A stretch of DNA of 64,000 nt. Source: Patescibacteria group bacterium (GTDB lineage: Bacteria; Patescibacteriota; Minisyncoccia; Phycocordibacterales; CAIZLB01). The notes under the pieces are model-generated. The model was not told the DNA's origin. It did not search any database and saw only the letters and a list, made by a program, of their open reading frames with translations. Below are positions 10,442-55,847 of this stretch, piece after piece (positions within the stretch are counted from its first letter, which is position 1; every line of letters starts with the position of its first letter). The position numbers and the translations under genes were made by a program. The stretch is from NCBI GenBank assembly GCA_040386515.1, contig JAZKFG010000002.1, positions 79,074 to 143,073 of the forward strand, in the 5' to 3' direction.

Positions 10442-10442
10442 A

Positions 10443-12528: not shown

Positions 12529-12549
12529 ATAGTGTGTTAGTATACAGAA

Positions 12550-24976: not shown

Positions 24977-25008
24977 ATGTACTTCATAATAGCATGAATT
25001 AAAAAACA

Positions 25009-25046
25009 CCTTGCGCAGTGACCTCTTGGAAGAGGTGTGCGCAAGG
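25009..25046 (-). terminator. Nested inverted repeat (CCTTGCGCA..CCTCTT/AAGAGG..TGCGCAAGG) followed on the minus strand by a T-run. Putative intrinsic terminator of the GC-rich gene and left boundary of the GC island.
   Basis: Seen directly: the 9-bp arms are perfect reverse complements and the inner 6-bp arms as well; TGTTTTTTAATT follows on the minus strand. Confidence 0.5.
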
Positions 25047-31224: not shown

Positions 31225-32319
31225 GTGCTATATTCAAGACTAATGTTCAGAAAACTCATACACACACTAAAGCGAAAGACAGTAGGAAAGGGAGATTTAG
31301 GTATCGGTATAGATTTAGGTACTGCTAATACGCTTGTATATATAGAAGGGAAAGGAATCGTTCTTGATGAGCCATCTGTGGTTGCAGTTAATCAAAAAAC
31401 AAGTCAGGTAGTAGCTGTAGGTAATCAGGCTAAGATTATGCTTGGAAAAACACCAGGACATATTCTTGCTATTCGTCCGCTTGTAGAAGGAGTTATTTCT
31501 GACTTTGAAGTAACAGAAGAGATGCTCGCATACGTAATACGAAAGACTGCAGAAGTTTTAAAAGTATCTTCTATTCCAACTGTTGTGATTGGAGTTCCGT
31601 ATGGAGTTACAAACGTAGAGCGAAGAGCTGTGCGTGATGCTGCTCGAAATGCAGGAGCGCGAGTTGTATATATTATAGAAGAGCCAATGGCTGCTGCTAT
31701 TGGAATCGGACTTCCTGTTCATGAGGCAAAGGGAAGTATGATTATTGATATCGGTGGAGGTACAACTGACATTGCAATTATTTCTCTTGGAGGAATTGTA
31801 AAAGGGAAAAATTTAAAAATAGCCGGAGATAGATTTAATACAGATATTATTTCATATATTAGAAATGAATATAAATTGCTTGTAGGAGAAAAAAGTGCAG
31901 AGCAGGTAAAGATTGCACTTTCAACTGTTTCTCCTGCACATCCAGAAATCACACATCCGATTCGCGGACGTGATCTTGTTACAGGATTGCCAAAAGAAAT
32001 TATTCTAACTGACAGTGATATTCATGACGCCATTCATTTATCGGCTGATTCTTTGTTTGAAGCTGTAAAAGAAGTGCTTGAATCAGCACCACCTGAAATT
32101 GTGTCTGATATTATGGTGCATGGTATATGGCTGACAGGTGGCGGCGCACTTATTAAAAATCTAGCAGAATCATTAACAGAATATACAGGTATTCCTGTGT
32201 ATGTTGCTGAAGATCCACTAACTGCAGTTGCTCGAGGGGCAGGTATTATTGCTCAAAATACAAATCTTTACGAAGACTTAATCATTGAAAACGAAGATGA
32301 GCTACCAATCAGGAGATAA
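31225..32319 (+). CDS. mreB: Rod shape-determining actin homolog MreB
   Basis: IGIDLGTANTLVY phosphate-1 motif, DIGGGTTD phosphate-2, actin-fold length. Confidence 0.85.
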   Translation: MLYSRLMFRKLIHTLKRKTVGKGDLGIGIDLGTANTLVYIEGKGIVLDEPSVVAVNQKTSQVVAVGNQAKIMLGKTPGHILAIRPLVEGVISDFEVTEEMLAYVIRKTAEVLKVSSIPTVVIGVPYGVTNVERRAVRDAARNAGARVVYIIEEPMAAAIGIGLPVHEAKGSMIIDIGGGTTDIAIISLGGIVKGKNLKIAGDRFNTDIISYIRNEYKLLVGEKSAEQVKIALSTVSPAHPEITHPIRGRDLVTGLPKEIILTDSDIHDAIHLSADSLFEAVKEVLESAPPEIVSDIMVHGIWLTGGGALIKNLAESLTEYTGIPVYVAEDPLTAVARGAGIIAQNTNLYEDLIIENEDELPIRR

Positions 32320-33226
32320 AAAAAATATATTAGGACATCGACTTTCAAATCGATATCTTTCAAGTGATGCATTCACAAGTTCTGCAGGTAAAACTGGAGG
32401 CAGAAGTATTTCTCGTTTAGGTTCATTATTTTCAAGACAAAAGCATAATCGAAGATTTTCAGGAACAGGACAAAAAGTTGGCTTGTTTGAGTTGAAAAAT
32501 ATTTTCATAAAGCTATGCGTTGTGGCTGCGTGCATTGCAGTTCTTGCGTACACGATTCCATTTACACGGTATAAAATACATGCGATATTTGCAAAATACG
32601 CTGACGTATATAACACAGTTGATGTTACTGAAGCAGATGATGTATTAGGTGTTGATGAAAAATATGTCTCTCCAGTGCTTACCAGTACGGATAGATTTTT
32701 GGTAAATGTTGATGATATGTCAATGTTGGCAAATGGTTCATATGTGTATGCATCGCCTATGAATACCCTTGTTGGAATATTTGAGCTTGCAACATCTTCT
32801 ACTCCACAAGTAGTTTTGTTTTCTGAAGTTGGATTTAAAAATAATCTTTTTCTTAAGGATTCTGCTAATACAATCCCATTTGATGCTGCTGCAACGAATA
32901 CAACTATTTTAAATGCTGGAGACACGGCATCAACTACAACAACTACTGTAAACAGTACAACAAGTGAAGTAGTGCAGATCGCGCATGTAAATGGATATTC
33001 TTCTATTATTTTCGAAGGACTTGGATACGGACAAATGTTAGCTAAAGTTCCACCACAAGTTGAAATTCCTGTAGGAACAATATTGTATGCGAGAACACAA
33101 TCAGGACTTAAACCTGCAGGAAGAGTGAGCTATATTGAAACCGATACAGGCTCTACATTTACAAACGTGTATGCGCAAATATTAACAGCTCCATATGCAA
33201 TATATAAGGTAAAGTTGACTGAGTAG
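32285..33226 (+). CDS. mreC: Probable rod shape-determining protein MreC (bitopic, beta-rich periplasmic domain)
   Basis: Position immediately after mreB and before PBP2; single TM; a C-terminal IPVGTILYARTQSG..GRVSYIE block resembling the MreC core. Confidence 0.45.
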   Translation: MKTKMSYQSGDKKNILGHRLSNRYLSSDAFTSSAGKTGGRSISRLGSLFSRQKHNRRFSGTGQKVGLFELKNIFIKLCVVAACIAVLAYTIPFTRYKIHAIFAKYADVYNTVDVTEADDVLGVDEKYVSPVLTSTDRFLVNVDDMSMLANGSYVYASPMNTLVGIFELATSSTPQVVLFSEVGFKNNLFLKDSANTIPFDAAATNTTILNAGDTASTTTTTVNSTTSEVVQIAHVNGYSSIIFEGLGYGQMLAKVPPQVEIPVGTILYARTQSGLKPAGRVSYIETDTGSTFTNVYAQILTAPYAIYKVKLTE

Positions 33227-33239
33227 GTATAATGTATAT

Positions 33240-35027
33240 ATGAAGCATAAAAAATACACTGAAATAGCTCCTGAAGATGTGCTTCTTGATCAAGCAAACC
33301 TTCCTGCATTTGATAAAACTCAGTTGCAGGGTCGTATTGTGCAATCTGTTGGCGGAGGAGTGCTGCAATTCATTTCTTTCGGAGTGATGTGTGTTATTGG
33401 TGTATTTATGTATTCAGCATATAAAACGCAAGTGGTGCAAGGGGCTTCATTTGCTGAGAAGGCTGAAAATAATAGATTTGAATCAATTCCAATATTTGCG
33501 CCTCGTGGTGCAATATATGATAGGAATAATATTCCTCTTGCCTGGAATACAGGAGATGAATCAGGAAGTATTGCAAATAGATTTTATACCCAAGAAGGAG
33601 GATTTGGAAATCTTTTGGGATATATCAAATTTCCGCGAAAAGATAAAAAAGGTTTTTATATAACTAAAGATACAATTCCTGTCGGAGGAGTGGAGGAATA
33701 TTATAATGATATTCTTGCTGGTAGGCCTGGATCATTATATATAGAAACAAATGCAACAGGGGATGTAGTGTCAGAAACCAAGGCAGATTTTCCGCTTAAG
33801 GGGAAAGATTTACATTTAACGCTTGATAGTGATATTCAGAAAAATTTATATGCCTCAATAAAAAAAGCCTCGCAAGAAAGTGGATACGTTGGCGGAGTAG
33901 GAATGGTTGTGGACGTTCGCGATGGTTCGATACTATCTGCTGTAACGTATCCAGATTTTGATGCAAATGTAATGACGAGCGCAACTGATACAGCTACAAT
34001 ACAAGGGTATCTTTCAAATAAAAGCAGTGTATTCCTGCATAGATATACAAGTGGTTTGTATGCACCAGGATCTATTGTAAAACCTGTATTTGCATATGCT
34101 GCTCTTAAAGAGCATATAGTAACTCCAGAAGAAAAAATATTAAGTACAGGAAAATTAGTTGTGCCAAATCCATATCAAAAAGATGCATTCACAGTCTTTC
34201 GAGACTGGAAAGCTCATGGATATACAAATGTGCGTGAAGCGATAGCAGTGTCTTCTGACGTTTACTTTTACACAGTGGGTGGAGGAGTTCCTGGAAAAGC
34301 AGGGCTCGGCATTAGTAAGCTTAGAGATTATGCAAAAGCCTTTGGTCTAGGAGAAACATTTGAAGGAACTTTTTTCTCATCTAAACAATCAGTTATTCCT
34401 GATCCTGAATGGAAAGCGCGAGTATTTGATGGTGACGAGTGGCGTCTTGGAAATACATATCACTCATCAATTGGTCAGTATGGATTTTCTATTACTCCTG
34501 TTCAGGTATTGGCTATGACAACATTGCTTGCAAATGAAGGAAAATCACTGCCAGTATTTAAATTAACTAAAGAAGAACCGACGCGGCAAATACCTGTTAA
34601 TTCGAATATGGTCGACGGAGGTGGTGCTATATATAATGAAATCCATGAAGGAATGCGATTAACTGTTACAGCTGGAACTGCACAGATTTTAAATATTGGT
34701 GATTTAAAAATTGCAGGAAAAACAGGAACAGCACAAACAGGAGTGGCTAACTCGCACATCAACTCGTGGTTTGTAGGATTTTGGCCATATACAAATCCAA
34801 AATATGCGGTTGCATATTTGCTTGAGAAGGCACCATCAAGTGCAACTAAAGGAGCAGCCTTTTATCTTCGAGATATGTTTGAATCATGTAAATCTTACGG
34901 CTGTGATTTAAGTGTTGCAAAAGAAAATCGTCGAACTGATGGTTCAACAGATTCAACTGAAACAGTGGGTATTGATAACTTAACGAGTACAGAAGATGTA
35001 CCTGCAGAATTGTATGAAAATAGATGA
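33240..35027 (+). CDS. mrdA: Penicillin-binding protein 2 (elongasome transpeptidase)
   Basis: N-terminal TM; SxxK (GSIVKP), SxD/N (SSD) and KTG (KTGTAQ) active-site triad; synteny with mreBC. Confidence 0.8.
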   Translation: MKHKKYTEIAPEDVLLDQANLPAFDKTQLQGRIVQSVGGGVLQFISFGVMCVIGVFMYSAYKTQVVQGASFAEKAENNRFESIPIFAPRGAIYDRNNIPLAWNTGDESGSIANRFYTQEGGFGNLLGYIKFPRKDKKGFYITKDTIPVGGVEEYYNDILAGRPGSLYIETNATGDVVSETKADFPLKGKDLHLTLDSDIQKNLYASIKKASQESGYVGGVGMVVDVRDGSILSAVTYPDFDANVMTSATDTATIQGYLSNKSSVFLHRYTSGLYAPGSIVKPVFAYAALKEHIVTPEEKILSTGKLVVPNPYQKDAFTVFRDWKAHGYTNVREAIAVSSDVYFYTVGGGVPGKAGLGISKLRDYAKAFGLGETFEGTFFSSKQSVIPDPEWKARVFDGDEWRLGNTYHSSIGQYGFSITPVQVLAMTTLLANEGKSLPVFKLTKEEPTRQIPVNSNMVDGGGAIYNEIHEGMRLTVTAGTAQILNIGDLKIAGKTGTAQTGVANSHINSWFVGFWPYTNPKYAVAYLLEKAPSSATKGAAFYLRDMFESCKSYGCDLSVAKENRRTDGSTDSTETVGIDNLTSTEDVPAELYENR

Positions 35028-36234
35028 TTTTAAAAAAATAAAATTACCTGATGCACCGGGTGTATATCTCTTTAAAAAAGGGGATGATATTTTGTATATC
35101 GGTAAAGCTACTTTTTTGACTGATAGAGTTAAAAGTTATTTTTCAGCTGATCTTATTAAGACACGCGGCATGTTATTGGTTGACATGGTGGCCAAAGCTG
35201 AGACTATTGAATATCAAGAAACTGGATCTGTACTTGAAGCATTGTTACTCGAAACTGAACTGATAAAACAGCACAAGCCGCATTATAATACAAAAGAAAA
35301 AGACGATAAAAGTTATTCATATGTTGTGATCACTAAAGAAGAGTATCCGACTATTTACATGCTTCGTGGGAGAAATCTTGAGCGACAAGATAAAAATCAT
35401 TACAGTCATATGTTTGGTCCATTTACATCCGGCGTACAATTGCGAGAGGCACTCCATATTATTCGAAAAATATTTCCATATAAAGATGAAAAATGTGTAG
35501 CAAACTCCGGCAAAATGTGTTTCAACGCCAGTATTGGATTGTGTCCTGGAGTTTGTGTAGGAAAAATTTCTGCAGCTGAGTATAAAAAAGAAGTAAAAAA
35601 GATTGTGCTGTTTTTAGGTGGAAAAACAAAACAGGTAACTGCATTGTTAAAGAAAGAGATGAATGCGCATGCTAAGGCGCTACATTTTGAAAAAGCTGAA
35701 GTGATTAAAAAACAAATATATGCCCTTGAGCATATTCGCGATGTTTCGCTTATCAAACAGGAAAGTATAAAGCCGAAAGTTGAGGGTAAGACAGGTGAGA
35801 CTCGAATAGAAGCATATGATATTGCCCATATGCAGGGGACAAATATGGTAGGAGTTATGGTTGTGATGATTGATGGCGAACTCACACCAAGCGAATATAA
35901 AAAATTTATTATTAAAAGCGTAAAAAGTTCTAACGATCCTGCAGCGCTTCGTGAAGTATTGCTTCGAAGATTTGGACATCCAGAATGGGGAATGCCAAAC
36001 ATTGTTGTAGTTGATGGAAATGATGTGCAAAAAAATGTTGCTCGAGAAATTGTTACTGATACAAGTATTCGTATACTTTCAGTTGTAAAGGATAATCGAC
36101 ACAAAGCTAAAGATATTTTAGGCGAGCTTCCAAAAACCGCATCGCCTGAGGAAATATATAAGATTAATGCTGAGGCTCATAGATTCGCTATTGCATATTT
36201 TAGAAGAAAGCAAAGAAAAAATGCATTGCTCTAG
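34996..36234 (+). CDS. uvrC: Excinuclease ABC subunit C, short form (GIY-YIG + Cys cluster + UVR domain + RNase H-like endonuclease domain, no C-terminal HhH). The start is probably MKIDDF at 35018.
   Basis: GVYLFKKGDDILYIGKA (GIY-YIG), CFNASIGLCPGVCVG, the UVR helix LHFEKAEVIKKQIYALE, and IEAYDIAHMQGT. Confidence 0.6.
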   Translation: MYLQNCMKIDDFKKIKLPDAPGVYLFKKGDDILYIGKATFLTDRVKSYFSADLIKTRGMLLVDMVAKAETIEYQETGSVLEALLLETELIKQHKPHYNTKEKDDKSYSYVVITKEEYPTIYMLRGRNLERQDKNHYSHMFGPFTSGVQLREALHIIRKIFPYKDEKCVANSGKMCFNASIGLCPGVCVGKISAAEYKKEVKKIVLFLGGKTKQVTALLKKEMNAHAKALHFEKAEVIKKQIYALEHIRDVSLIKQESIKPKVEGKTGETRIEAYDIAHMQGTNMVGVMVVMIDGELTPSEYKKFIIKSVKSSNDPAALREVLLRRFGHPEWGMPNIVVVDGNDVQKNVAREIVTDTSIRILSVVKDNRHKAKDILGELPKTASPEEIYKINAEAHRFAIAYFRRKQRKNALL

Positions 36235-36266: not shown

Positions 36267-37232
36267 ATGAGTATGAGATTTTTGCACATCAAACGAGCAT
36301 ATGTTGTTGATGCTACCTATACCTACGAGGTGGAGCGTGATCTTATGTCTAATAGTGCTCTTCTTGATTCAGTTTATGGAGTAAGTTTACATGATGTGTG
36401 TGCGATTACAGAAAATGGAGAGTGGCTAGTGCAGGGAAAGAAAATTGATCCAACAATTTTTTTGAAGTCATACGCAATAGTATTCGTATATATTCATAGC
36501 CCAAATAATGCATATGACAGGGCACAACTTATGTGCAAAGCCTATGCAGAAAAGCATGTTATGGTATATAAGGCAACTGATGCTATTGCGCACCATGCGG
36601 AACGACTAGCATCACTTATAGAGACATATAAGCTTGAAGCTAAAATCCCTCATCAAATACATGTTGATTTAACAGATCATAATCAGAACTTTACACCGTC
36701 TGAGATAATAGCAGGGAAGCATATTAGAAATGTATTTTTGCCGGTGCATGTAATCCCGTCACTGTATCGTCTGCATGTACCGGATATGCATAAAAAATTA
36801 TTGGCAAATAATCACGCTGAGCTATCGGAGCATATTGATTCTCTTCGACATGCAAATGATCACATTACGTTGAGATCGCAAATTACCGGCGAATCAATAT
36901 TCATCGCGGCGATTCCAGGCCTCAGAGAAAAAAAAATATATATTACTATGCCACTGATTTCAAAGACTATGGGTCCAGAAACTTTTTTTATCCCCGCACA
37001 ACTGAAAGAAAATCAAAAAAAGGAACTGCACAATGTGGTATTTGATATTTCTCATATTTTATTTCCAACAACAGGTGCAGTTTTTGCCCTTCAAGCACAT
37101 CCAAAAAGGGGGGTTTTTGTGCAAGCAACAGCGCCGCTTTATTTTTTTATGTTGCATAATCATAATTTTCTACAGGAGATTTCAGAAACCCATGGAATAC
37201 CTTTGAAAAATTTGTTTGAGAGTATGATTTAG
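36267..37232 (+). CDS. Hypothetical protein (321 aa, His-rich, no recognisable domain)
   Basis: Long ORF with gene-like composition; no motif recognised. Confidence 0.35.
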   Translation: MSMRFLHIKRAYVVDATYTYEVERDLMSNSALLDSVYGVSLHDVCAITENGEWLVQGKKIDPTIFLKSYAIVFVYIHSPNNAYDRAQLMCKAYAEKHVMVYKATDAIAHHAERLASLIETYKLEAKIPHQIHVDLTDHNQNFTPSEIIAGKHIRNVFLPVHVIPSLYRLHVPDMHKKLLANNHAELSEHIDSLRHANDHITLRSQITGESIFIAAIPGLREKKIYITMPLISKTMGPETFFIPAQLKENQKKELHNVVFDISHILFPTTGAVFALQAHPKRGVFVQATAPLYFFMLHNHNFLQEISETHGIPLKNLFESMI

Positions 37233-37256: not shown

Positions 37257-39770
37257 ATGAAGAAGAGATCTCTACTTATCATTTTAATTTCGGCCCTTAC
37301 TGTATTTTTTTCAAGTGCAAGCATTTTCGCTGCAGCTCCAAGTAAAGCTTTAGGATTTCAAGGTCAGTTGTTTAGCAATGGCACACCGCTCAGCAGTAGT
37401 GTAAACGCAACATTTACATTTTACAACTCTTTAAGTGGTGGCTCTACAACTGGCTCTCCAATCTCAAAAACAATTACAGTTGCTAACGGATATTTCGGTA
37501 CTCAATTCACAGAAGCAGACACTACAGGAGTAAACTTTGATCAGGATTTATATATTCAGGTAAACATCAACGGAACTGATTTGTCTCCACGAACAGCAAT
37601 CAACGCTGCACCAACTGCATTAAAAGCCTTTGGAACATTTTCATATGCAAGTGCACCAACTGTAGGTCCTGTGGGAAGTCTTTACTTCAATACTGTTGAC
37701 GGCAAATTATATACATCAAATGGAACAGCATGGTCATCAGCATCATCTGTATGGTCTACAAATGGAACATTTGCATATTACAATGCTGGAAGTGTTGGAA
37801 TTGGAACAACTACTGCTGCAAGTTCAACAACTGCACTAACCATTGATTTAGGTTTAAACCAGACACAAGGAATTCATATTACAGGTACAAAAGATAAATT
37901 TATTTTCCTTGAAAGACTCGGTTCAGGGGGAAGGGGTTTAGTAATTGGGCAACAAAATGGAGGACAGATGTATGGAGGAAATGCATCAGTTATTCGTTCT
38001 GCAGGAACTTTAGATGAAGTGATTGAAATTTCTCCTGGAAGAGATCTGTCTTTGAACAAAGGTTCTGTTCAGATTGCTCCTTTTGGAGGACTTGTATCGA
38101 TCGGTAATGCTTCACCTGCGTATAAACTCGATATTGCAAGTTCTTCTTCTGCAAATGCTGTAGACATGCTTAGATTCCAAAACACTGCAAATGCAGCTGC
38201 AAATACTGGAGCAAGCATATTATTTACAGCAAATAGAAGTGGGGAAACTGCAACAGATGTAGCACGATTGTCTGGAGCAATTACAGATATTACTGCAGGT
38301 GCATATAAAGGTGCTTTAATTTTCTCTACTGCAAATAATGCGGCTCCAGCTGAAAGAATGCGACTTGATAGTAACGGATTCTTAGGTATTGGTACAACTG
38401 CACCAACTGCACGTTTTGATATTAACGATGGAGGAATTGGTATGATCATTGGTGCCGATAACAATGGAAACCAAACTCGAACAAACAATACAACAAAGGT
38501 TGGACGAATTGCTTCTCCTCACTATACAAACAATGAAGAACCAATGGCTATGATTTTCAGTAGTTCTGGAACGTCAACAAGTATAGTGTCATTCGGAGGT
38601 GGTTCTGCAGTTATGAATGCTGCAACAGAAATTAGATTCTTTACTGCGGCAGATACTATAACTACTGGTGGAACTTCACGAATGGTAATTGATACAAATG
38701 GAAATGTTGGTATTGGTACTACAACTCCGACAACAGGATCAAGACTTGATATCTGGGGGAATATGCAGGTAGGAACATCGTCGCTCCCAGCATTCTTTGT
38801 TGATTCGTCAACATCACGAATAGGTGTAGGAACAACTACACCAGGACGAACTCTTACTGTCGCAGGACTGGGAATGCAGATATATAGATCAGGAGGCGGT
38901 GTACCACATATTGAAATAATTCAAGGAGGAGCAGCAGCAGATTTAAGAAACTGGAGACTTAACGGAGAGATAGACGGATCATTTAACATATATCCAATGA
39001 CTGATGCTAACTCAAACTTAAGACCGCTTCGATATACGCATGATGGGCGACTGCAAATAACAAACTCAACTATGTCTAACGTCGATGCACGACTCTATGT
39101 AGATAGTAATAGTGTTGCATCTACCTCAGCTGTATTTATGAATGGATTTGTTGGTATTGGAACAACAACTCCAACTGCAAACTTAACTGCGTCAGGAACA
39201 ATTAGATTTTCTTCACTTGTAGGTGGTGGGGCAAACCTAGTGGTAGATTCACTTGGAAATGTAACAGTTTCTTCTGATGAGCGATTGAAGGATATAAAAG
39301 GAATGTTTACAACAGGTCTTGATAAAATCCTTGCACTTAATCCGATTTCATATAAATGGAAACCAGAAACTGGATATGATACTACTAACACATACGCAGG
39401 ATTTAGTGCACAAAATGTTCAATCTGCCATTCCAGAAGCAGTGGGAACTGACAACCGAGGATTCCTAACGCTTGCCGACAGACCAATACTAGCTGCACTT
39501 GTGAATGCTGTAAAAGAGCTTGCTGTAAAAATTGGAAATATGTCAAACAAAGTGCAGACAAAAGAACTTTGTCTTGATGATGTATGTATCACAAAAGATC
39601 AGTTGAGAACAATTTTGCAGCAGCAAAATAATATAAACATTAATACGATTAATGTTGTAACTCCACCGCCAACAACTTCTACAACAACTGTTGAAATTAC
39701 TCCTGCGCCAGCTCCAACACCAGAGCTTGTTGCGCCGGTTGAGCCAGCAACTCCTCCTGCAACTGAATAG
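37257..39770 (+). CDS. Secreted fibre-like protein: Gly/Thr/Ala-rich with repeated (V/L)GIGTT(T/A)P motifs and a C-terminal peptidase-S74-type intramolecular chaperone (autoproteolytic) domain, followed by a Pro/Thr tail
   Basis: Signal peptide MKKRSLLIILISALTVFFSSASIFAAAP. There are four or more MRLDSNGFLGIGTTAPTARFDI-type repeats. The C-terminal block is SSDERLKDIKG..LNPISYKWKPE..AGFSAQNVQSAIPEAV. Confidence 0.6.
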   Translation: MKKRSLLIILISALTVFFSSASIFAAAPSKALGFQGQLFSNGTPLSSSVNATFTFYNSLSGGSTTGSPISKTITVANGYFGTQFTEADTTGVNFDQDLYIQVNINGTDLSPRTAINAAPTALKAFGTFSYASAPTVGPVGSLYFNTVDGKLYTSNGTAWSSASSVWSTNGTFAYYNAGSVGIGTTTAASSTTALTIDLGLNQTQGIHITGTKDKFIFLERLGSGGRGLVIGQQNGGQMYGGNASVIRSAGTLDEVIEISPGRDLSLNKGSVQIAPFGGLVSIGNASPAYKLDIASSSSANAVDMLRFQNTANAAANTGASILFTANRSGETATDVARLSGAITDITAGAYKGALIFSTANNAAPAERMRLDSNGFLGIGTTAPTARFDINDGGIGMIIGADNNGNQTRTNNTTKVGRIASPHYTNNEEPMAMIFSSSGTSTSIVSFGGGSAVMNAATEIRFFTAADTITTGGTSRMVIDTNGNVGIGTTTPTTGSRLDIWGNMQVGTSSLPAFFVDSSTSRIGVGTTTPGRTLTVAGLGMQIYRSGGGVPHIEIIQGGAAADLRNWRLNGEIDGSFNIYPMTDANSNLRPLRYTHDGRLQITNSTMSNVDARLYVDSNSVASTSAVFMNGFVGIGTTTPTANLTASGTIRFSSLVGGGANLVVDSLGNVTVSSDERLKDIKGMFTTGLDKILALNPISYKWKPETGYDTTNTYAGFSAQNVQSAIPEAVGTDNRGFLTLADRPILAALVNAVKELAVKIGNMSNKVQTKELCLDDVCITKDQLRTILQQQNNININTINVVTPPPTTSTTTVEITPAPAPTPELVAPVEPATPPATE

Positions 39771-39797
39771 ATTCTTATTACGTGGTAATATTATTAT

Positions 39798-40646
39798 ATG
39801 AGTTTCCATTCATTTCCGCGTCTCAATAATAAAAAAGGATTTACACTTATTGAACTCCTTGTAGTTATTTCTATTATTTCACTACTTTCATCAATTGTAT
39901 TCACTTCATTATCGAGTGCACGAGTTAGAGCTGCAAAAGTTGCAGGAATGGAATTTGCCTCACGAATGGATAGAACTATTGGATTGAACACTGCAGTGGA
40001 TATTGATTTTGATGAGGGAACTGGAACAAAAGTTGTAAATAAATCAGATGGAAACCAAGCAACCGCAGTAGGCGGTCCTACATGGTCAACTGATACGCCA
40101 ACAGGAATTGGCTATTCAATGGCATTTTCAGGTACTCAAAACATAAATGTATATGCAACAGGTGATGGAATGAATGCAACTAATGATGGAAGGGCTTTTA
40201 CATATGCCGCATGGTATGAACCAAGAGTAGTGAATCCGGCAACAGGGATTTATATATTAAACAGATCAGGATATCACTCAGGAATAACGCACTCAGCATC
40301 TGGAAGACTTGGCTGTACACAGTGGTTTACCGATATAACAAACATCAATATACAATATACAACGAACGTCGATGCGGGAAGATGGTATCATGTTGCGTGC
40401 ACAGTCGACAGTCTTAAAAAAACTATTACATTATATGTTAACGGTAATGCTGTTAATAAAGCAACATACACGACAGGTAAGATTTTATATGATTATTCAG
40501 CAGTTCCATATACAATAGGAGCATTTAGTTCTACGTATGCAGCAGATGGAAATATTGACCAAGTACGAGTATTTACACAATCTCTCGTTGCTCAACAAGT
40601 TAAGGATTTATACGATGCTACAAAGGCACAATTTGCCCTAAAGTAG
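39798..40646 (+). CDS. Type IV pilin-like protein with a C-terminal LamG/lectin-like domain (paralog of 25839..26615)
   Basis: KG|FTLIELLVVISIISLL prepilin motif; RWYHVACTVD..LYVNGN and GNIDQVRVF LamG blocks. Confidence 0.65.
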   Translation: MSFHSFPRLNNKKGFTLIELLVVISIISLLSSIVFTSLSSARVRAAKVAGMEFASRMDRTIGLNTAVDIDFDEGTGTKVVNKSDGNQATAVGGPTWSTDTPTGIGYSMAFSGTQNINVYATGDGMNATNDGRAFTYAAWYEPRVVNPATGIYILNRSGYHSGITHSASGRLGCTQWFTDITNINIQYTTNVDAGRWYHVACTVDSLKKTITLYVNGNAVNKATYTTGKILYDYSAVPYTIGAFSSTYAADGNIDQVRVFTQSLVAQQVKDLYDATKAQFALK

Positions 40647-44387: not shown

Positions 44388-46166
44388 ATGAATGACGACA
44401 AAAGAGTGACATATTTCGGTTTGACCGATGCCAGAAATCAAGAGAGAAAATTTGGTATTTATGACGAGGATAGACTTCGTCATATGTATGCTATTGGTAA
44501 GACTGGTATGGGTAAATCAACTTTGCTCGAAAACATGGCCATTCAAGATATTCAAAATGGCCAAGGTTTGGCATTTCTCGATCCTCATGGAAAAACAGTT
44601 GAGCTTCTTCTTGAGCATGTTCCAAAGCATCGTATTAAAGATGTTATTTATATTGCACCATTTGATCTTGAGCATCCTATTGCCTTTAACGTGCTTGAAG
44701 ATGTGGGCGATCCAGATCCAGTTCGACGTCAGCTTATCGTTTCAGGCTTGATGAGTACATTTAAAAAGCTGTGGCAAGATCAGTGGAGTGCTCGAATGGA
44801 ATACATATTGAACTATGCACTTCTCGCACTTTTGGAAATTCCTGATGCAACACTTCTTGATGTGAACCGTATGCTTTCTGATAAGCAGTTCAGAAACAAT
44901 GTTGTTCGTCAGCTTAAAGAGCCAACTGTGAAAATGTATTGGGAAAAAGAATTTGCAGCCTATACTGATAAAGTTGTTGCTGAAGCCATGCCTGCTATTC
45001 AAAACAAAGTAGGGCAATTTATTTCAAATAGTTTGATTCGAAATATTATCGGACAAACAAAATCTTCTTTTGATATTCGAGAAATCATGGATCAGCGAAA
45101 GATTTTGCTTATCAATCTTTCAATCGGACGAATCGGTGAAGATGCGGTAAACCTTTTAGGGTCATTGTTTGTGACAAAGATTTATCTTGCTGCCATGTCG
45201 CGTGCTTCTATACCAGATCGGGAAATGAAGCATTTGCCAAACTTCTATTTATACGTGGATGAGTTTCAGAACTTTACCAACGATTCATTTGCCCAAATTC
45301 TTGCCCAGGCCAGAAAGTATAAGCTGAGTTTGATTGTAGCGCACCAGTATGTAAAGCAAATGACAGAAGTTGTGCATGATGCAATTTTCGGTAACGTAGG
45401 AACTATGATTACATTTCGAGTAGGTGCGGATGATGGTGAATCTCTTGAAAAAGAATTTCAGCCAACATTCGTTGTAGAGGATTTCGTAAACCTTGGACGT
45501 TTTCAGATGTATTTAAAGCTTATGATAAATGGAGTAACATCTGGAGCTTTTTCTGCAAAGGGAATGGGTCCATGGCCATCTCCAACTGAATCATATGTTG
45601 ATGAAATTCTTGCCTCATCACGTGAGCAATATACACATCCACGAAAAGAGGTAGAAGATCATATATTACAGTGGACTCTTGGTGGTGCCTCGGGTACAGC
45701 TGCAGGAGGTGCTCCTAAGCCTGTTTCTAGTGATAATGAGAATATGCAAGGTCCAGTTGCAGCGAATACCAATAATGCCCCAAGAGAACCTCGACAGCAA
45801 TCATCACAACCAATGCAGGGACCTCGAGATAATAGAGGTGGTGAGAGAGGTGTAGATAATCGTTCTCAGTCGTCACGACCATCACAACCTCAATCTCCAA
45901 GACAGCCTGAACGAAGTCGAGATGGTAATAGAGACGAGAGAGCACCAGTTCGAGAACGAGAGCAACAGCCTCGTAGAGACATGCAACAGAATTCAGCACA
46001 CAACTCTGCACCAAAAGTTCATAATCCATTTGCAACGGCCTTTAAAGCAGTGCTTGAAAAACCGGTCGAAGAAAAAAAAGATGCATCAACTGAATCGTCT
46101 TCGTCTCAGCAGAAGAGAGACATAGACCCTGACGTTTTGAAAAGCATGCTTGGTCTTCAAGAATAA
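44388..46166 (+). CDS. VirD4/TraG/TraD-like P-loop ATPase (type IV coupling protein family) with a long disordered Q/R/S/P-rich C-terminal tail. No TM segments and no other T4SS genes nearby.
   Basis: Walker A GKTGMGKST, Walker B LYVDEFQNF, the AHQY sensor motif, and an ILLINLSIG block typical of TraG-D_C. Confidence 0.5.
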   Translation: MNDDKRVTYFGLTDARNQERKFGIYDEDRLRHMYAIGKTGMGKSTLLENMAIQDIQNGQGLAFLDPHGKTVELLLEHVPKHRIKDVIYIAPFDLEHPIAFNVLEDVGDPDPVRRQLIVSGLMSTFKKLWQDQWSARMEYILNYALLALLEIPDATLLDVNRMLSDKQFRNNVVRQLKEPTVKMYWEKEFAAYTDKVVAEAMPAIQNKVGQFISNSLIRNIIGQTKSSFDIREIMDQRKILLINLSIGRIGEDAVNLLGSLFVTKIYLAAMSRASIPDREMKHLPNFYLYVDEFQNFTNDSFAQILAQARKYKLSLIVAHQYVKQMTEVVHDAIFGNVGTMITFRVGADDGESLEKEFQPTFVVEDFVNLGRFQMYLKLMINGVTSGAFSAKGMGPWPSPTESYVDEILASSREQYTHPRKEVEDHILQWTLGGASGTAAGGAPKPVSSDNENMQGPVAANTNNAPREPRQQSSQPMQGPRDNRGGERGVDNRSQSSRPSQPQSPRQPERSRDGNRDERAPVREREQQPRRDMQQNSAHNSAPKVHNPFATAFKAVLEKPVEEKKDASTESSSSQQKRDIDPDVLKSMLGLQE

Positions 46167-46169
46167 CTT

Positions 46170-46943
46170 ATGAAGTACTCAATCATTATTCCAACCTACA
46201 AGCGACCAGATAAGCTTATACGCGCGGTTCAATCTGTTTTTGCCCAAAAGATTAAGTCTTTTGAAATCATTATCGCAAATGATAGTCCTGGATATTCGTA
46301 TGCAGCATTTGAAACATATTGCATAGGATTGACGGATGATCAAAAAGATCAAATCGTCTACATTCAAAACCTGCAAAATAGTGGATCAAATTTCTCAAAG
46401 AATGCTGCCTTAGGACAAGTGTCAAAGTCTACTGATTATGTGATGTTTTTGGACGATGATGATTGGCTTTCATCGAACGCGCTTGTTGATATAGACGGTT
46501 ACTTGAAACGAAACATGGTTGCATGGCTTGTAACCAATCGGGTTTTGAAAGATGGAAAAAGCCTGACGTTTTCCCCTAAAGAAAAAATACATTATTTTTG
46601 GGATTATTTAATAACCAAAAGGGTAAAAGGGGATGCAACGCATATTATTAAGAGGGCATATGCAACACGATATTCATTTTCTAAAAATGCCAAGAATACA
46701 GAGGAGTGGTTTTACTTTATTCAATTGCCTGTGGATGCCATTTATAAGCCGTATAACACGACGGAAAGCGAAGGATACGATCAAGACGGGATAACGACAA
46801 ACTTACAAATGATATATGCCGATAATACAAAACTGCTAATGAGAGAAGCTCGAGGATTTAAAATGCACATATATCTTATCATACGATATGTATACGGTAT
46901 GCTAAAAAAACAAAAATCAACTGGCAATAATGCTCAGGGTTAA
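46170..46943 (+). CDS. Family 2 glycosyltransferase
   Basis: IIIPTYKRPDKL N-terminus and the DDDD (DxD) motif. Confidence 0.7.
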   Translation: MKYSIIIPTYKRPDKLIRAVQSVFAQKIKSFEIIIANDSPGYSYAAFETYCIGLTDDQKDQIVYIQNLQNSGSNFSKNAALGQVSKSTDYVMFLDDDDWLSSNALVDIDGYLKRNMVAWLVTNRVLKDGKSLTFSPKEKIHYFWDYLITKRVKGDATHIIKRAYATRYSFSKNAKNTEEWFYFIQLPVDAIYKPYNTTESEGYDQDGITTNLQMIYADNTKLLMREARGFKMHIYLIIRYVYGMLKKQKSTGNNAQG

Positions 46944-47023
46944 TTCGTTTAAGGATTTTGAAGTGTCGCGGGACATCAATGTATACAAAGGAACGCAAAT
47001 TAATGTATACTGTTTTAAACACT

Positions 47024-47779
47024 ATGAAAATATTCGTCATCAACCTACGAAGAAGAATGGACAGAAGAATCAGCATGGAAACACAGCTTAATCGGGAAAA
47101 GCTGCCTTTTGAGATTATTCCGGCACTCGAACTTAAAGATATTCAGAAAAGCGACGTGAGTGGTGTATTCAACAAAGGAACCATGTATCAGCCAAACGAA
47201 ATCGCGTGTTCAGCCTCTCATCGATTGATATACGCGCGCATGATTAAGGACAACATTCCAAAGGCTATGATATTCGAGGATGACGTGGTTATGCCTGTTG
47301 ATTTTAGTAATATTGTTGAAGCGTTGGATAATCATACGTATGATGACATTGATTGGCTTCAAGTAGATTATCCCAGCGTTGGATTTGGCTTTATACGACA
47401 ATGGACGAAGGTATACGTAGGGTTTTTTGAATTCAAAATAACCTATATGCTCAAGTTCTTCGTTAAGTTTCCGATTGTGGTTGCAGTATCGCTATACGAG
47501 CAGTTTCTGCTCTGGTTTGTTGGACAAACTTTTCAGTCACGCATTCCAACGGTAGTTCGGTTTTACCGTGACGTGTATTTTGCGAGTTGTTATATAGTGA
47601 CACTAAGCGCAGCAAAGAAGTTGCTTGCAGCCCAGACACCGCTTATGTACACGGCAGACAAGCTCCCAAACATGCTTAAAAAAGAAGGGTTTAAAATGCG
47701 GATTTGCATCCCTCGATTTACGTATCAAGACAATCAGTCGTTCGGCTCAGACCTAACTCCTGTTATTCCTCGTAAGTAA
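47024..47779 (+). CDS. Family 25 glycosyltransferase (LPS/LOS beta-1,4-galactosyltransferase-like), paralog 1
   Basis: MKIFVINLRRRMDRR start characteristic of GT25; about 65% identical to 49616..50362. Confidence 0.6.
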   Translation: MKIFVINLRRRMDRRISMETQLNREKLPFEIIPALELKDIQKSDVSGVFNKGTMYQPNEIACSASHRLIYARMIKDNIPKAMIFEDDVVMPVDFSNIVEALDNHTYDDIDWLQVDYPSVGFGFIRQWTKVYVGFFEFKITYMLKFFVKFPIVVAVSLYEQFLLWFVGQTFQSRIPTVVRFYRDVYFASCYIVTLSAAKKLLAAQTPLMYTADKLPNMLKKEGFKMRICIPRFTYQDNQSFGSDLTPVIPRK

Positions 47780-47781
47780 TA

Positions 47782-48588
47782 TTAGATAACGTTTGAATAA
47801 TCTTTTTCATCGTATATATATCGAAGTCCGAATCCAATATCAAATGACTGGTATCCAAGTTCTGCATAGTGTTTTGCCAAGATCTTGCTTGTCGGTCCTG
47901 TTGAAATTGCAAGCACGACTTTTTTGTCGGCAAGGTTTGAAAGGACGTTGTCAACAGTTGCTATTATATTATGAAGTTTGTCGAAAGAATTTTCCTTTGG
48001 CGTGTCAACGTAGGTTGCTGAGGCAAAGGGTATGGTCGTTTTACGTATCTCTGCATTCGCATCCTCATTCGTTACGAATACCACATGCTTGTCCTGTAAA
48101 AATTCGTTAAAAAACCGGAGCATGAGGTTTCTATAATAAAAGAAGTGCGCATCCGCGTACGCGGCGTCTTTGTTGAACATCTTTCTAAATTCAACCTTAA
48201 GGGGGAGCCAACAAGAAAGCTTGCCGTCTGTCTTCGAAAGTTCCTGATTAGTGTAATTTACAAAAACTGGGATGCTTAGGATATAGGGTGACTCAAGAGT
48301 GTATTCCTTAATAATTTTCCGAAGACCAAGCTCAAGCTCCTTTTCGTGCGGCTGGTAGTGAATGTCTCGACCGTGAAGTAGGCCTATTTCTCCATCCCCG
48401 ATACGGATGATTGATTTGCCTTTTGCTATTTGATCAAAAAGCTCGTGCTCGGAATAAAAGCGCGCGGAATTAGGGTAGGTTTTTTGGGGATAAGCCATTG
48501 CATAGGCGAGTACAAAAGAAGGATACCGTAAAAGGTAGTTTTTGAAAAAATTAACGATTCTCTTAAGGAATGCGATTTTAGAATCCAT
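47782..48588 (-). CDS. DUF1792-like (GT-D type) putative glycosyltransferase, paralog 1
   Basis: Conserved IIRIGDGEIGLLHGRDIHYQ block (DxE-like metal motif); paralog of 51930..52724. Confidence 0.4.
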   Translation of the reverse strand: MDSKIAFLKRIVNFFKNYLLRYPSFVLAYAMAYPQKTYPNSARFYSEHELFDQIAKGKSIIRIGDGEIGLLHGRDIHYQPHEKELELGLRKIIKEYTLESPYILSIPVFVNYTNQELSKTDGKLSCWLPLKVEFRKMFNKDAAYADAHFFYYRNLMLRFFNEFLQDKHVVFVTNEDANAEIRKTTIPFASATYVDTPKENSFDKLHNIIATVDNVLSNLADKKVVLAISTGPTSKILAKHYAELGYQSFDIGFGLRYIYDEKDYSNVI

Positions 48589-48620
48589 GCCAGTAGTATA
48601 GCGTATTTATAAAGTTGTGT

Positions 48621-48668
48621 ATCCTAGATTTTCAGTATATTTCGGATTCTAATATGAAGAGGTTTTAA
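48621..48668. repeat. Conserved ~45-nt intergenic motif (copy 1), CTAGATTTT.A..ATATTTCGGATTCTAATATGAAG.GG.TTT; the second copy is at 53621..53670
   Basis: Near-identical strings seen at both sites, each 35-80 nt upstream of a minus-strand gene start (DUF1792-like and FkbM respectively); likely a shared promoter/operator. Confidence 0.35.
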
Positions 48669-48731
48669 GTTGAAACTCTATATGTTGATACGACTTTTCT
48701 ATGTTATAATAAGAAAATAAATATACCGATT

Positions 48732-49619
48732 ATGACCCTATTCATCAAGAACTTCTTTAAAAAACACTTTTTCTACCTCTACAAGGCTATTCGAAGTGTC
48801 TTATTTCCAATATATAAACTGTATCAAAAGCTGTCATTAAAGAAATTTACTGAAACAGTATTATTTGATTTTAACTATGCCGATATTGGCTTTAAAATTT
48901 TTCTAAATCCGAAGAACGGATTTATCGATAAGGAGATTTTTTGGAAGGGTGTGTATGAAGAAGATTTTCTGGATTTTTTAAAGCAAGAGATTCACTCTGA
49001 AGATGTATATATTGATATCGGAGCAAATATTGGCCAGCACGCATTGTTTGTATCGCGTATTGTAAAGCGAGGACTTGTATATGCTTTTGAACCGAATCCT
49101 GCCATATATGATCAGTTTACTAAAAGCATAGAGGCAAATGGCATTAAAAATATTCAGCAATATAATATTGGCCTAGGTGCAGAAAAATCAGAGCAAAAGC
49201 TATTTTTGAATACTGAAAATATAGGAGGCTCATCACAGCTGCAGTACAAAGATGCAATGAGTGAAATCACAATGCATATTGAAAAAGGTGATGATATCTT
49301 AGGTCCTATTTGCAGCAAAGTTGATTTTATAAAAATAGATGTAGAAGGTTTTGAATATGAGGCACTTGTTGGTTTGACTGAAACTATTAAAAAATATAAG
49401 CCAAAAATGCTTATTGAGTTTACTCCTGTTTTCTATAATAAAAAGAATTCACAAGATGCTCAGCATATTTTGGATTTTCTTCTTGCACACGGATATAGTT
49501 TTAGAGACTTGGAAGCAGCACATAGTTCGACTGTATATAAGACAAAAGAGGAAATGACAGCATGGCTGACTTCAATGACAAAAGATCAAACAAATATATT
49601 TTGTTTTAATGCAATATGA
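48732..49619 (+). CDS. FkbM-family SAM-dependent methyltransferase, paralog 1
   Basis: DIGANIGQHALF..VYAFEPNP motif set of MT FkbM. Confidence 0.65.
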   Translation: MTLFIKNFFKKHFFYLYKAIRSVLFPIYKLYQKLSLKKFTETVLFDFNYADIGFKIFLNPKNGFIDKEIFWKGVYEEDFLDFLKQEIHSEDVYIDIGANIGQHALFVSRIVKRGLVYAFEPNPAIYDQFTKSIEANGIKNIQQYNIGLGAEKSEQKLFLNTENIGGSSQLQYKDAMSEITMHIEKGDDILGPICSKVDFIKIDVEGFEYEALVGLTETIKKYKPKMLIEFTPVFYNKKNSQDAQHILDFLLAHGYSFRDLEAAHSSTVYKTKEEMTAWLTSMTKDQTNIFCFNAI

Positions 49620-50362
49620 AAATCTTTGTAATTAATTTAAAAAGTAGAACTGACCGAAGAAGCAACATGGAAAATCAGTTGCGAAGGGAAAAGTTGGCAT
49701 ATGAAATCGTAGAGGCAACTGAACCGAGTGATATTCCTCGAGGTGAAATACACGACGTATACAGTAGAGGGAGCATGTACCAGCCTAATGAAATCGCATG
49801 TTCTGCCTCACATAGATCTATATATGCTCGTATGATGCGCGAGAATATTGAAAAGGCTATGATTTTCGAAGATAATGTGGTGATTCCCGTTAACTTCAGT
49901 AAAGTATTTGAAGCATTGGACAAGAGAAAATATAATGATATTGATTGGCTTCAAATAGATTATCCAAGTTCAGGCTTTGGATTTATTCGACAATGGCTTA
50001 AAACATATGGTGACTTTTTTGATTTGAAAATAAAGTATATTGCTAAGTTTTTTATAATATTCCCTGCAGTTGTAGTACTTGCATTGTACGAGCAAATTCT
50101 CCTGTGGTTTGTCGCTAATACTGTTCAATCAAGAGTTCCAACAGTTGTTCGATTCTATAGAGATGTGTACTCAGCAAGCTGCTATATAGTTACTAAGCAA
50201 GCCGCAGAGAAATTATATAAGGCACAAACTCCACTCACATATACTGCAGACAAATTGCCGAACACGCTAAAGAAAGATGGTTTTGTTATTCGAATTTGTA
50301 TACCTCGATTTGTATATCAGAATAATGAAGCATTTGGATCAAACCTTGCGCCAAGAGATTAG
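49616..50362 (+). CDS. Family 25 glycosyltransferase, paralog 2 (ATGA overlap with the upstream gene)
   Basis: MKIFVINLKSRTDRR; collinear similarity with 47024..47779. Confidence 0.6.
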   Translation: MKIFVINLKSRTDRRSNMENQLRREKLAYEIVEATEPSDIPRGEIHDVYSRGSMYQPNEIACSASHRSIYARMMRENIEKAMIFEDNVVIPVNFSKVFEALDKRKYNDIDWLQIDYPSSGFGFIRQWLKTYGDFFDLKIKYIAKFFIIFPAVVVLALYEQILLWFVANTVQSRVPTVVRFYRDVYSASCYIVTKQAAEKLYKAQTPLTYTADKLPNTLKKDGFVIRICIPRFVYQNNEAFGSNLAPRD

Positions 50363-51920: not shown

Positions 51921-51929
51921 ATATGTGTT

Positions 51930-52724: not shown

Positions 52725-52727
52725 ATA

Positions 52728-53591: not shown

Positions 53592-53620
53592 GACTACATA
53601 ATAGCGTATATATATCCTTA

Positions 53621-53670
53621 ATCCTACCTAGATTTTTAACATATTTCGGATTCTAATATGAAGCGGCTTT
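53621..53670. repeat. Conserved ~45-nt intergenic motif (copy 2)
   Basis: See copy 1 at 48621..48668. Confidence 0.35.
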
Positions 53671-53894
53671 CGGAGTTTTACTTCTCCAATACTGATAAAA
53701 TATGAGGCGCAAATCATAAGTAGGGCAATGCATACCGATATGACTGAGATCTTTCCAAACTTTTCAAATAATCCTGTTGGTATCTGTATTTTCCTTAATG
53801 GCATTTGAAAAATAATGGAAGACTAGAACTGAGCAGGCGGCAAAAAAACTGAGTAAATCGAGTATCGGAAAATAAGTCTTCTTCATAAATGTGT

Positions 53895-55822: not shown

Positions 55823-55847
55823 ACTTATCTATGCTACCATAGTCTGT

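Follow-up and report, generated by a model that had tools for sequence, protein, structure and literature searches.

A gene whose product resembles a phage tail fibre, lying among housekeeping genes on the chromosome of a Patescibacteria bacterium, raises the question of whether it is a leftover of a phage or a fibre that serves the cell itself. According to the abstracts of two papers (PMC11623550, PMC12206443), it is largely unknown by what means ultrasmall episymbiotic Patescibacteria recognize and attach to their hosts, and the work done so far points to type IV pili and a small number of lectin-like adhesins. We analyzed a 64-kb stretch of DNA around the gene (hereafter “the window”), which contains one copy of it. 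We consider it probable that the gene encodes a surface fibre of the mosaic adhesive trimer (MAT) type, which would be exported, trimeric, self-cleaving at S673 and adhesive, possibly to a host cell; this view draws on sequence comparison, structure models and the analogy with characterized fibres.

The fibre gene occupies positions 37257..39770 of the window (+ strand) and encodes 837 aa, and the next ORF downstream (39798..40646, +) encodes 282 aa, exactly as an earlier sequence-only reading of this DNA had placed them. That reading described a phage-tail-fibre-like secreted protein with an S74 chaperone domain, and our results support both parts of the description. The S74 call in itself is routine, and the NCBI name of the protein is already “tail fiber domain-containing protein.” A predicted Sec-type signal peptide covers residues 1-25 (MKKRSLLIILISALTVFFSSASIFA|AAP; 37257..37331, +), with cleavage predicted around IFA|A. 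It is the sole hydrophobic segment of the 837-aa protein, in agreement with the signal peptide proposed earlier: the Kyte-Doolittle window maximum falls at residues 5-20, and the same scan over the whole length found no second hydrophobic segment. Its KKR n-region and IFA|A site are conserved in the paralogues, across which the junction keeps the form (I/V)(F/S)AA|(S/A)P.

Directly after the signal peptide comes a conserved N-terminal module of roughly 145 aa (residues 26-170; 37332..37766, +), a candidate cell-proximal anchor. It consists of an FN3/Ig-like beta-sandwich (about residues 32-115) and a “SAPTVGxxGSLYFNT..LY.S.G..W” element, and the AF2 monomer model of the domain is an all-beta sandwich with pLDDT 82. 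The family profile of this N-domain matches the N-termini of fibres from B. svalbardensis and Bacteriovoracaceae (Bdellovibrionota, cultured isolates included). When a family of 124 N-domain sequences was aligned by hhalign to 13 Bdellovibrionota N-termini, which came from S74 fibres of Bdellovibrio species and not from the 21 HD100 MATs themselves, the probability was 98.9% (E 3.7e-17); a shallow profile built from Patescibacteria only, set against Bdellovibrionota-only N-termini, gave 26% (E 7e-4). By the deeper of these two profile comparisons, the N-domain is homologous to the opening domain of Bdellovibrionota S74 fibres, which has an extra Cys-containing stretch of about 40 aa in Bdellovibrionota. 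A word-indexed search for homologues of this domain returned one fragment, and an exhaustive HMMER search returned 19,006 cluster representatives, for a minority of which the lineage was read. An S74 region is present in 37 of 60 long representatives and the rest have non-S74 termini, a split like that among MATs.

Behind the N-domain extends a variable mosaic shaft (residues 171-630; 37767..39146, +) with GxGTTxP repeats of the “capping-loop” type, predicted to form a trimeric beta-helix. The sequence-only reading had described multiple copies of MR(L/I)D..G.(L/V)GIGTT.P. Repeats of the GxGTTxP type are indeed present in multiple copies, but the literal pattern is found at one place (residue 368) and a loosened form of it at two (367 and 475). 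The core G[IV]G[TN][TAS] has five copies (residues 181, 377, 485, 523 and 633) against 0.08 expected, a number reached in none of 20,000 shuffles, and a degenerate sixth copy of the repeat lies near residue 279. At the DNA level, a 35-nt motif recurs in the gene at irregular spacing, with no tandem array. In phmmer searches the shaft matches the solved beta-helices of Bdellovibrio MATs (8oml, 8on4 of Bd1334, and 8ond of Bd2133; E 1.6e-6 to 4.7e-5), the alignments falling on ERMRxDxxGxxGxGxxxPT repeats, and PHROG tail-fibre families match the protein as well.

The shaft is also where the protein differs most from its paralogues in related genomes, which keep the N-module (70-78% identity) and the S74 block (82-86%) and have the shaft replaced. 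Residues 161-360 resemble P0002, the closest orthologue (70-88%), residues 481-640 resemble P0003 (58-88%), and the best match of residues 401-480 is a Bacteriovoracia fibre (45-48%); judged from these identities, the shaft is a three-part chimera. Its last turns (residues 631-672; 39147..39272, +), which end at the predicted scissile bond S672|S673, are conserved: they share 64-90% identity with the paralogues and 68% with Methylocystis proteins. Since these approximately 40 residues before the cleavage site are conserved rather than variable, binding specificity would have to sit in the middle of the shaft and not at its tip. Fibre genes also appear to be multi-copy in relatives: P0002, P0006 and P0009 each list a longest contig of 235,694 bp, apparently three copies on one contig, and P0004 and P0005 each list one of 43,119 bp, apparently two. 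We considered a diversity-generating retroelement and rejected it: the DNA around the gene has neither a long template/variable repeat pair nor a tandem array, and none of the scanned ORFs encodes a reverse transcriptase.

The C-terminal part begins with a Peptidase S74/ICA domain that includes a long helix (residues 673-768; 39273..39560, +) and starts with the catalytic motif S673-D-E-R-L-K678. The Pfam search that had been suggested as a check places PF13884 (Peptidase_S74) at residues 673-729 with E 1.7e-13 and 51.1 bits, above the cutoff of 22. S673, D674 and K678 are invariant across 37 aligned homologues, forming an SDxxxK motif with a Ser-Lys dyad at five-residue spacing. The AF2 monomer model of the core has a pLDDT of about 95, and the best Foldseek match of the C-terminal model is the ICA domain of MyRF (7dc3; E 2.4e-6, probability 1.00, TM-score 0.63 on the target), with weak matches to the phage chaperones 3gw6 and 3gud ranking next. 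On the profile match and the model, this is a genuine S74 intramolecular chaperone domain with the ICA fold. Cleavage between S672 and S673 is predicted from Bd3182, which is cut at its own catalytic serine.

Two further elements follow the chaperone. The first is a conserved C-x4-C beta-hairpin (C772, C777) with a short helix (ELCLDDVCITKDQLRTIL; residues 769-790; 39561..39626, +), which AF2 models as strands 770-773 and 776-779 and helix 780-790; the hairpin motif is common to fibres of Patescibacteria, Methylocystis, Rhodospirillales and Bacteriovoracia. The second is a Pro/Thr-rich low-complexity tail (residues 791-837 with the stop codon; 39627..39770, +). Pro and Thr each make up 22% of the last 50 residues, and the final Glu recurs in 10 of the 11 closest proteins. 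The Cys hairpin and the long tail both sit on the fragment that is supposedly discarded after cleavage, which we count against the MAT-fibre model.

In its sequence matches and order of parts, the closest known system is the S74 subgroup of the Bdellovibrio MAT fibres, a relationship that the earlier reading had missed. MATs were defined by Caulton et al. (2024, PMC10769870), who demonstrated S74 self-cleavage of Bd3182 at the catalytic serine. The Patescibacteria protein and the Bd3182 type share the order of signal peptide, conserved beta-rich N-domain (about 130 aa in MATs, all of which have it), GxGxxxP capping-loop shaft and S74 domain with SDxxxK. The shaft matches solved MAT structures, and the N-domain has homologues in Bdellovibrionota fibres, in a comparison that covered S74 fibres of Bdellovibrio species. 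Both systems are chromosomal and mosaic. Bdellovibrio MATs are also multi-copy, as the fibre genes of the relatives appear to be; the window has a single copy. There are also differences. The Patescibacteria fibre is conserved at both ends and variable in the middle, whereas Bdellovibrio MATs vary at the tip, and the Patescibacteria proteins add the Pro/Thr-rich tail after the hairpin. To our knowledge, Patescibacteria lack an outer membrane, unlike Bdellovibrio; this, too, was counted against the MAT-fibre model. Patescibacteria are absent from the list of other MAT-bearing organisms in the MAT paper (PMC10769870).

Other known systems resemble the protein in part. Phage tailspikes and fibres (the K1F endosialidase 3gw6, the GA-1 neck appendage 3gud and the distal subunits of Klebsiella/Enterobacter long tail fibres) have in common with it the S74 module and the last beta-helix turns, with 27-31% identity over residues ~585-765. 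They differ in that the Patescibacteria protein has a predicted Sec signal peptide, an N-domain of cellular type where they have a virion-attachment domain, and a non-phage location. The MyRF ICA domain is a self-cleaving trimerization module with the same Ser-Lys chemistry (PMC10769870), and as MyRF is a eukaryotic membrane-bound transcription factor, the likeness is limited to that module. YadA-like trimeric autotransporter adhesins are likewise long trimeric surface fibres (predicted in our case) with a repetitive shaft, and YadA_head repeats occur in one Saccharibacteria paralogue. Their orientation is the opposite, however: the candidate anchor of the Patescibacteria fibre is N-terminal and its C-terminal module is predicted to be cleaved off. 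Pfam finds S74 only, the protein has no C-terminal hydrophobic or beta-barrel region, and a trimeric autotransporter was rejected for want of a barrel anchor.

A MAT-type fibre of this kind would work as follows. The precursor would be exported through Sec by means of its signal peptide (residues 1-25). Three chains would assemble from the C-terminus, with the S74/ICA domain (673-768) serving as the template for an intertwined beta-helical shaft, and the Ser673-Lys678 dyad would then cut S672|S673, releasing a 165-residue chaperone fragment and leaving a mature fibre of ~647 residues with residues 631-672 as its C-terminal tip. The conserved N-terminal beta-sandwich module (26-170) may retain the fibre on the cell surface via a common envelope component, and the recombining shaft (171-630) may carry the binding specificity. 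The mature fibre would serve in adhesion, with the surface of the episymbiont's host cell as the most plausible target. From the parts described above we infer export, trimerization, self-cleavage, surface retention by the N-domain and a role in binding a ligand or host. The essential adhesins in a Saccharibacteria Tn-seq study were of other types (VCBS, dockerin and FN3), which we count against the model.

The alternative that survives best accepts a secreted trimeric fibre and assigns it another task: an envelope- or S-layer-associated structure, an adhesin for matrix, biofilm or particles, or a decoy that titrates phages. The N-domain family, with its 19,006 representatives, occurs in many lineages, some of which must be neither symbionts nor predators. 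Close S74 relatives occur in Methylocystis and Rhodospirillales, which are known as free-living bacteria, and the predicted mature tip is conserved rather than diversified. The combination of shaft mosaicism and a multi-copy repertoire is, on the other hand, a signature of receptor-binding proteins under diversifying pressure, and the Bdellovibrio MATs, as the only characterized relatives, bind glycans on the surface of prey (PMC10769870). We regard a fibre with some other task as a serious but clearly less probable reading than a host-recognition fibre.

A further alternative concerns the gene downstream. The 282-aa product is a type-IV (pseudo)pilin with a C-terminal LamG/ConA-like lectin domain, as determined by Pfam (N_methyl at residues 10-35, Laminin_G_3 at 128-269) and by an NCBIfam prepilin domain. 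The fibre and this LamG-pilin could form one attachment device, in which the fibre would sit on or work with a type IV pilus and the LamG protein would be its tip or a minor pilin. Both genes are read from the same strand, and the 27-nt gap between them contains no terminator-like site; one paralogue, P0010 (locus L006), is encoded immediately after a prepilin peptidase gene; the MAT paper raises the possibility of an interplay with type IV pili (PMC10769870); and type IV pili are needed for host association in Saccharibacteria, according to the literature. Against this, the window contains five prepilin genes, because of which a pilin neighbour would be expected by chance about once in six by our estimate, and one of them is a second LamG-pilin (25839-26615) without an adjoining fibre gene. 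Nor were the two genes found together in the other loci compared: none of the six related fibre loci (L001-L006) has a LamG-pilin relative, and none of 80 pilin-bearing metagenomic loci has the N-domain or S74 block, these loci being almost only generic prepilin-helix matches that include no orthologue of the LamG-pilin. The cooperation between fibre and LamG-pilin suggested from the sequence is thus not supported here, and we consider a shared device unlikely.

The chromosomal setting bears on the remaining alternative, that of phage origin. The fibre gene lies between uvrC and frr on the core chromosome, and the surrounding genes are housekeeping genes (mreB, PBP2, uvrC, frr, rseP and a D-Ala-D-Ala carboxypeptidase). 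The neighbours named in the earlier reading were right as to the LamG-pilin and then frr downstream and uvrC upstream, except that uvrC is separated from the fibre gene by a 321-aa ORF (36267-37232). This ORF lacks a signal peptide and matches no family, so nothing ties it to the fibre. Among 43 ORFs scanned across the 64 kb (with Pfam, and eight of them with NCBIfam), there were no phage structural or morphogenesis, integrase or lysis genes, in line with the earlier view that this is not a prophage. In the six related loci the fibre gene follows rpoBC, precedes rpsB-tsf, or follows a prepilin peptidase gene. By alignment, only the C-terminal fifth of the protein is similar to phages: 124 phage records match it at about residues 585-765 with 27-31% identity, and none aligns to residues 1-490. 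No relatives of the N-domain were found in GenBank phages or IMG/VR at the sensitivity used, and its structure matches in BFVD were weak generic sandwiches only (best E 1e-3, TM-score at most 0.5). The virion-attachment N-terminal domain common to phage fibres was not found in the protein in comparisons with phage records, IMG/VR and BFVD.

That the gene is a prophage remnant or a recently captured tail fibre gene without cellular function is thus highly improbable, for although PHROG tail-fibre families and the phage records match the protein and S74 is a domain typical of phage tailspikes and fibres, the window lacks phage genes, the GC content of the gene equals that of its flanks, the ORF is intact with a predicted Sec signal peptide, the N-domain is absent from the phage collections as searched, and the paralogues occupy several different housekeeping contexts. 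We know of no virion proteins with a Sec signal peptide. The earlier word “domesticated” implies a direction from phage to cell that our data do not show, given a very large N-domain family without relatives in the phage and viral collections searched. As a predicted secreted fibre of the type with which predatory Bdellovibrio grips its prey, the protein is a candidate for host recognition and not a prophage remnant.

Beyond the MAT-type fibre proposed for this gene, we tentatively put forward a broader idea: Patescibacteria episymbionts may carry a recombining repertoire of MAT-type fibres, with one anchor, one chaperone and varied shaft cassettes, that decides which host can be attached to, and may exchange cassettes across phyla with predatory Bdellovibrionota. 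The cue for such exchange is the segment of residues 401-480, closest to a Bacteriovoracia fibre. Fibre genes are easy to find in MAGs by their conserved N-domain and S74 modules, so that repertoires could be correlated with host associations. A family of fibres predicted to be exported and self-processing, with swappable shafts and a similarity to phage receptor-binding proteins, is a concrete and testable candidate for host recognition, and would link CPR episymbiosis mechanistically to Bdellovibrio predation. If the repertoire idea is true, the set of fibres that an uncultured CPR bacterium carries could be read as a code for its host range, and predators and episymbionts would share one ancient toolkit for recognizing other bacteria.

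The fibre gene occupies window positions 37257-39770 (+, 837 aa) and is followed at 39798-40646 (+, 282 aa) by a LamG-pilin gene, exactly where a sequence-only reading had placed both ORFs. The signal peptide it had proposed is also predicted here (residues 1-25), with a KKR n-region, a 20-residue hydrophobic core and an IFA/AAP end. This N-terminal core is the sole hydrophobic segment along the 837 aa, and inspection of the whole protein sequence found no membrane, LPXTG or lipid anchor. An identical protein is named [quoted passage not shown] by NCBI, on a 292-kb contig. Multiple fibre-type repeats are present, although the literal motif occurs only once: five copies of the motif core, G[IV]G[TN][TAS], stand against 0.08 expected (a count reached in 0/20,000 shuffles), with a degenerate sixth copy at about residue 279. 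At the DNA level, a 35-nt repeat element recurs at irregular spacing, and no tandem array of it exists in the fibre gene.

The proposed C-terminal S74 chaperone domain was recovered by Pfam as Peptidase_S74 at residues 673-729 (E 1.7e-13, 51.1 bits, cutoff 22). S673, D674 and K678 are invariant across 37 aligned homologues, forming the SDxxxK motif named in the Bdellovibrio study as catalytic for S74 (PMC10769870). In an AF2 monomer model of residues 625-797, the S74 core (pLDDT about 95) is followed by a long helix, a C772-x4-C777 beta-hairpin and a short helix. The only significant solved match in Foldseek is the intramolecular chaperone auto-cleaving (ICA) domain of MyRF (7dc3, E 2.4e-6, probability 1.00), with weak matches to the intramolecular chaperones of phages K1F and GA-1 next. 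Because sequence, motif and fold agree, the S74/ICA assignment is supported. About 40 residues preceding the predicted cleavage site are conserved among relatives. Past the S74 helix (residues 769-837, window 39561-39770), a C-x4-9-C hairpin and a TK(D/E)Q(L/F) helix are conserved in the homologous fibre proteins P0002-P0013; relatives from Methylocystis, Rhodospirillales and Bacteriovoracia have the Cys hairpin too. Next comes a 40-60-aa tail rich in Pro, Thr and Glu, with a terminal Glu in 10/11 of the closest proteins. The Cys hairpin and Pro/Thr-rich tail are located on the C-terminal fragment that is expected to be discarded.

An exhaustive HMMER search with a Patescibacteria profile of the N-domain (residues 26-170) returned 19,006 cluster representatives with E<=1e-3, of which 935 reach E<=1e-10 and 37 reach E<=1e-30. 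The domain lies within the first 60 residues in 121 of 124 clear members, and the MAGs whose loci carry this module are labelled Patescibacteria or Candidatus Saccharibacteria. The family profile also matches fibre N-termini from Bacteriovoracaceae MAGs and the isolate Bdellovibrio svalbardensis. In profile-profile comparison with 13 Bdellovibrionota N-termini (comparators other than proteins of B. bacteriovorus HD100), a shallow Patescibacteria-only alignment gave 26% and E 7e-4, and the 124-sequence family alignment, which excludes all 13 aligned Bdellovibrionota proteins, gave 98.9% and E 3.7e-17 over 103 columns.

This architecture resembles the superfamily of mosaic adhesive trimers (MATs) defined by Caulton et al. 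2024, in which a signal peptide and a beta-rich domain (~130 aa) common to the members precede a long trimeric fibre that bears capping loops, ending in an S74 chaperone/protease (13/21 HD100 members) or another adhesive tip (PMC10769870). Among long N-domain representatives, 37/60 also contain an S74 region and the remainder do not, the same split as in MATs. A phmmer search against PDB sequences matched the shaft to 8oml, 8on4 and 8ond (E 1.6e-6 to 4.7e-5), alignments that rest on ERMRxDxxGxxGxGxxxPT repeats; these structures show the fibre tips of two Bdellovibrio bacteriovorus proteins, Bd1334 and Bd2133 (PMC10769870). Experiments on MATs demonstrated surface display, self-cleavage of Bd3182 at the catalytic Ser and glycan binding by Bd2439 (PMC10769870).

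Relatives of the window protein, 607 to 1399 aa long, keep the N-module and S74 block (82-86%) and have entirely different shaft sequences. Shaft residues 161-360 best match P0002 (70-88%; P0003 only 20-30%), residues 481-640 best match P0003 (58-88%; P0002 only 20-35%), and residues 401-480 best match a Bacteriovoracia fibre at 45-48%, above any Patescibacteria paralogue. That last cassette, PHYTNNEEPMAMIF...AATEIRFFTAADT (window 38457-38696), is closest to a fibre from a Bacteriovoracia MAG and is found again in many unlabelled metagenomic fibres; such sequence matches suggest a widely exchanged module.

The window itself holds a single fibre copy. The longest contig recorded is 235,694 bp for each of P0002, P0006 and P0009 and 43,119 bp for both P0004 and P0005; we take the first three to share one contig and the other two another. 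Among related fibre loci in other genomes, L003 (CAZVIP010000001.1, a Candidatus Saccharibacteria MAG) encodes at 10001-14446 a 1481-aa paralogue with the same N-domain and S74 block, whose shaft contains a Hint/intein-splicing-like module (residues ~249-375) and YadA_head repeats. The L001 paralogue (JAZKJG010000001.1, 10001 to beyond 20483) exceeds 3,400 aa and carries ~40-aa repeats of the form STTEWA...GLTYNSSTGA. In L001, L002 and L005, the paralogue lies directly 3' of rpoB-rpoC, with a small 150-166-aa ORF without family match in between.

The adjacent pilin (N_methyl and Laminin_G_3 in Pfam) had been suggested to cooperate with the fibre. Only 27 nt separate the two genes, with no terminator-like site in the gap, so co-transcription is possible. 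A weak second hint comes from L006 (2131-5246), where P0010 starts 62 nt 3' of a gene for a prepilin peptidase (Peptidase_A24); no further case of a fibre gene adjoining a type-IV-pilus gene was seen. However, the 64-kb window contains five prepilin-type genes (25839-26615, -; 39798-40646, 62521-63027, 63348-63836 and 63873-end, all +), and the second LamG-pilin, at 25839-26615, has no fibre beside it. Fibre paralogues elsewhere sit after rpoBC, before rpsB-tsf (L004) or after the prepilin peptidase, a LamG-pilin relative is absent from all six loci (L001-L006), and 0/80 pilin-bearing metagenomic loci contain a fibre gene. These results leave a specific partnership unsupported, though they do not disprove it. 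No orthologue of the 39798-40646 pilin was recovered. Both pilins with C-terminal LamG/ConA-like lectin domains are isolated genes outside any pilus operon, and their mutual identity is 34%.

A prophage reading is excluded, since phage similarity misses the N-terminus, a signal peptide is present and the setting is chromosomal; the ancient exchange of the S74 module may have run in either direction. In 50,697 GenBank phage records, 124 match the fibre protein (27-31% identity, ~residues 490/585-765), through the distal subunits of long tail fibres from Klebsiella and Enterobacter phages, and none covers the N-terminal 490 residues. The N-domain has no relatives in IMG/VR at pattern-scan sensitivity and only weak generic sandwich matches in BFVD. 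As the earlier reading had stated for phage structural genes in the flanks, none of the 43 ORFs scanned over 64 kb has a phage morphogenesis, integrase or lysis function. The genes identified serve housekeeping or the envelope and include gyrB, pheT, leuS, typA, mreB, PBP2, a short uvrC, frr, rseP, D-Ala-D-Ala carboxypeptidase, secA, a VirD4-like ATPase and a glycan-synthesis cluster, and GC content is uniform.

UvrC (34996-36234, +) is short, at 412 aa, with GIY-YIG, UVR and RNase H-like domains and the C-terminal HhH not matched; its start overlaps the PBP2 gene end by 32 nt. The VirD4/TrwB-like type IV secretion coupling ATPase (44388-46166, +) stands amid housekeeping and glycosyltransferase genes, with no other recognisable T4SS gene among its scanned neighbours. 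A surface-glycan cluster (46170-58100), some 6 kb downstream from the fibre gene, encodes GT2, GT25, a GT-D fold protein, an FkbM methyltransferase, a Polysacc_synt flippase, a 750-aa Wzy_C/O-antigen-ligase-like protein and further 250-290-aa ORFs. Large ORFs without Pfam or NCBIfam match lie at 8123-10441 (+, 772 aa), 23393-25009 (-, 538 aa), 58176-59420 (+, 414 aa), 32285-33226 (+, 313 aa, at the mreC position in the mreB-PBP2 interval) and 36267-37232 (+, 321 aa); the last, directly upstream of the fibre gene, looks cytoplasmic.

By analogy with the MAT/S74 family, the precursor would be exported by Sec, and its C-terminal ICA domain would trimerise and template the beta-helical shaft. Ser673/Lys678 would then cut the S672-S673 bond, freeing residues 673-837, and the mature fibre, roughly 647 residues long, would be held on the cell by the conserved N-domain, with the variable shaft as the putative target-binding part. 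Its most plausible role is adhesion to host cells, given the Bdellovibrio precedent, the receptor-binding-protein-like diversification and Patescibacteria episymbiosis, a lifestyle reported for cultivated members (PMC11623550, PMC12206443).

MAT-like proteins have been noted in other predators, Omnitrophica and the FCB group, with Patescibacteria not among them (PMC10769870). Searches of open-access papers and bioRxiv found no mention of “mosaic adhesive trimer” in Patescibacteria, and nothing relevant on S74/tail-fibre proteins of Patescibacteria or Saccharibacteria; Patescibacteria papers checked there are silent on fibres of this type. Calling the S74 domain is routine, and NCBI's annotation already has it, but the link to MAT fibres and the mosaic repertoire offer a candidate for host recognition by episymbionts that can be tested.
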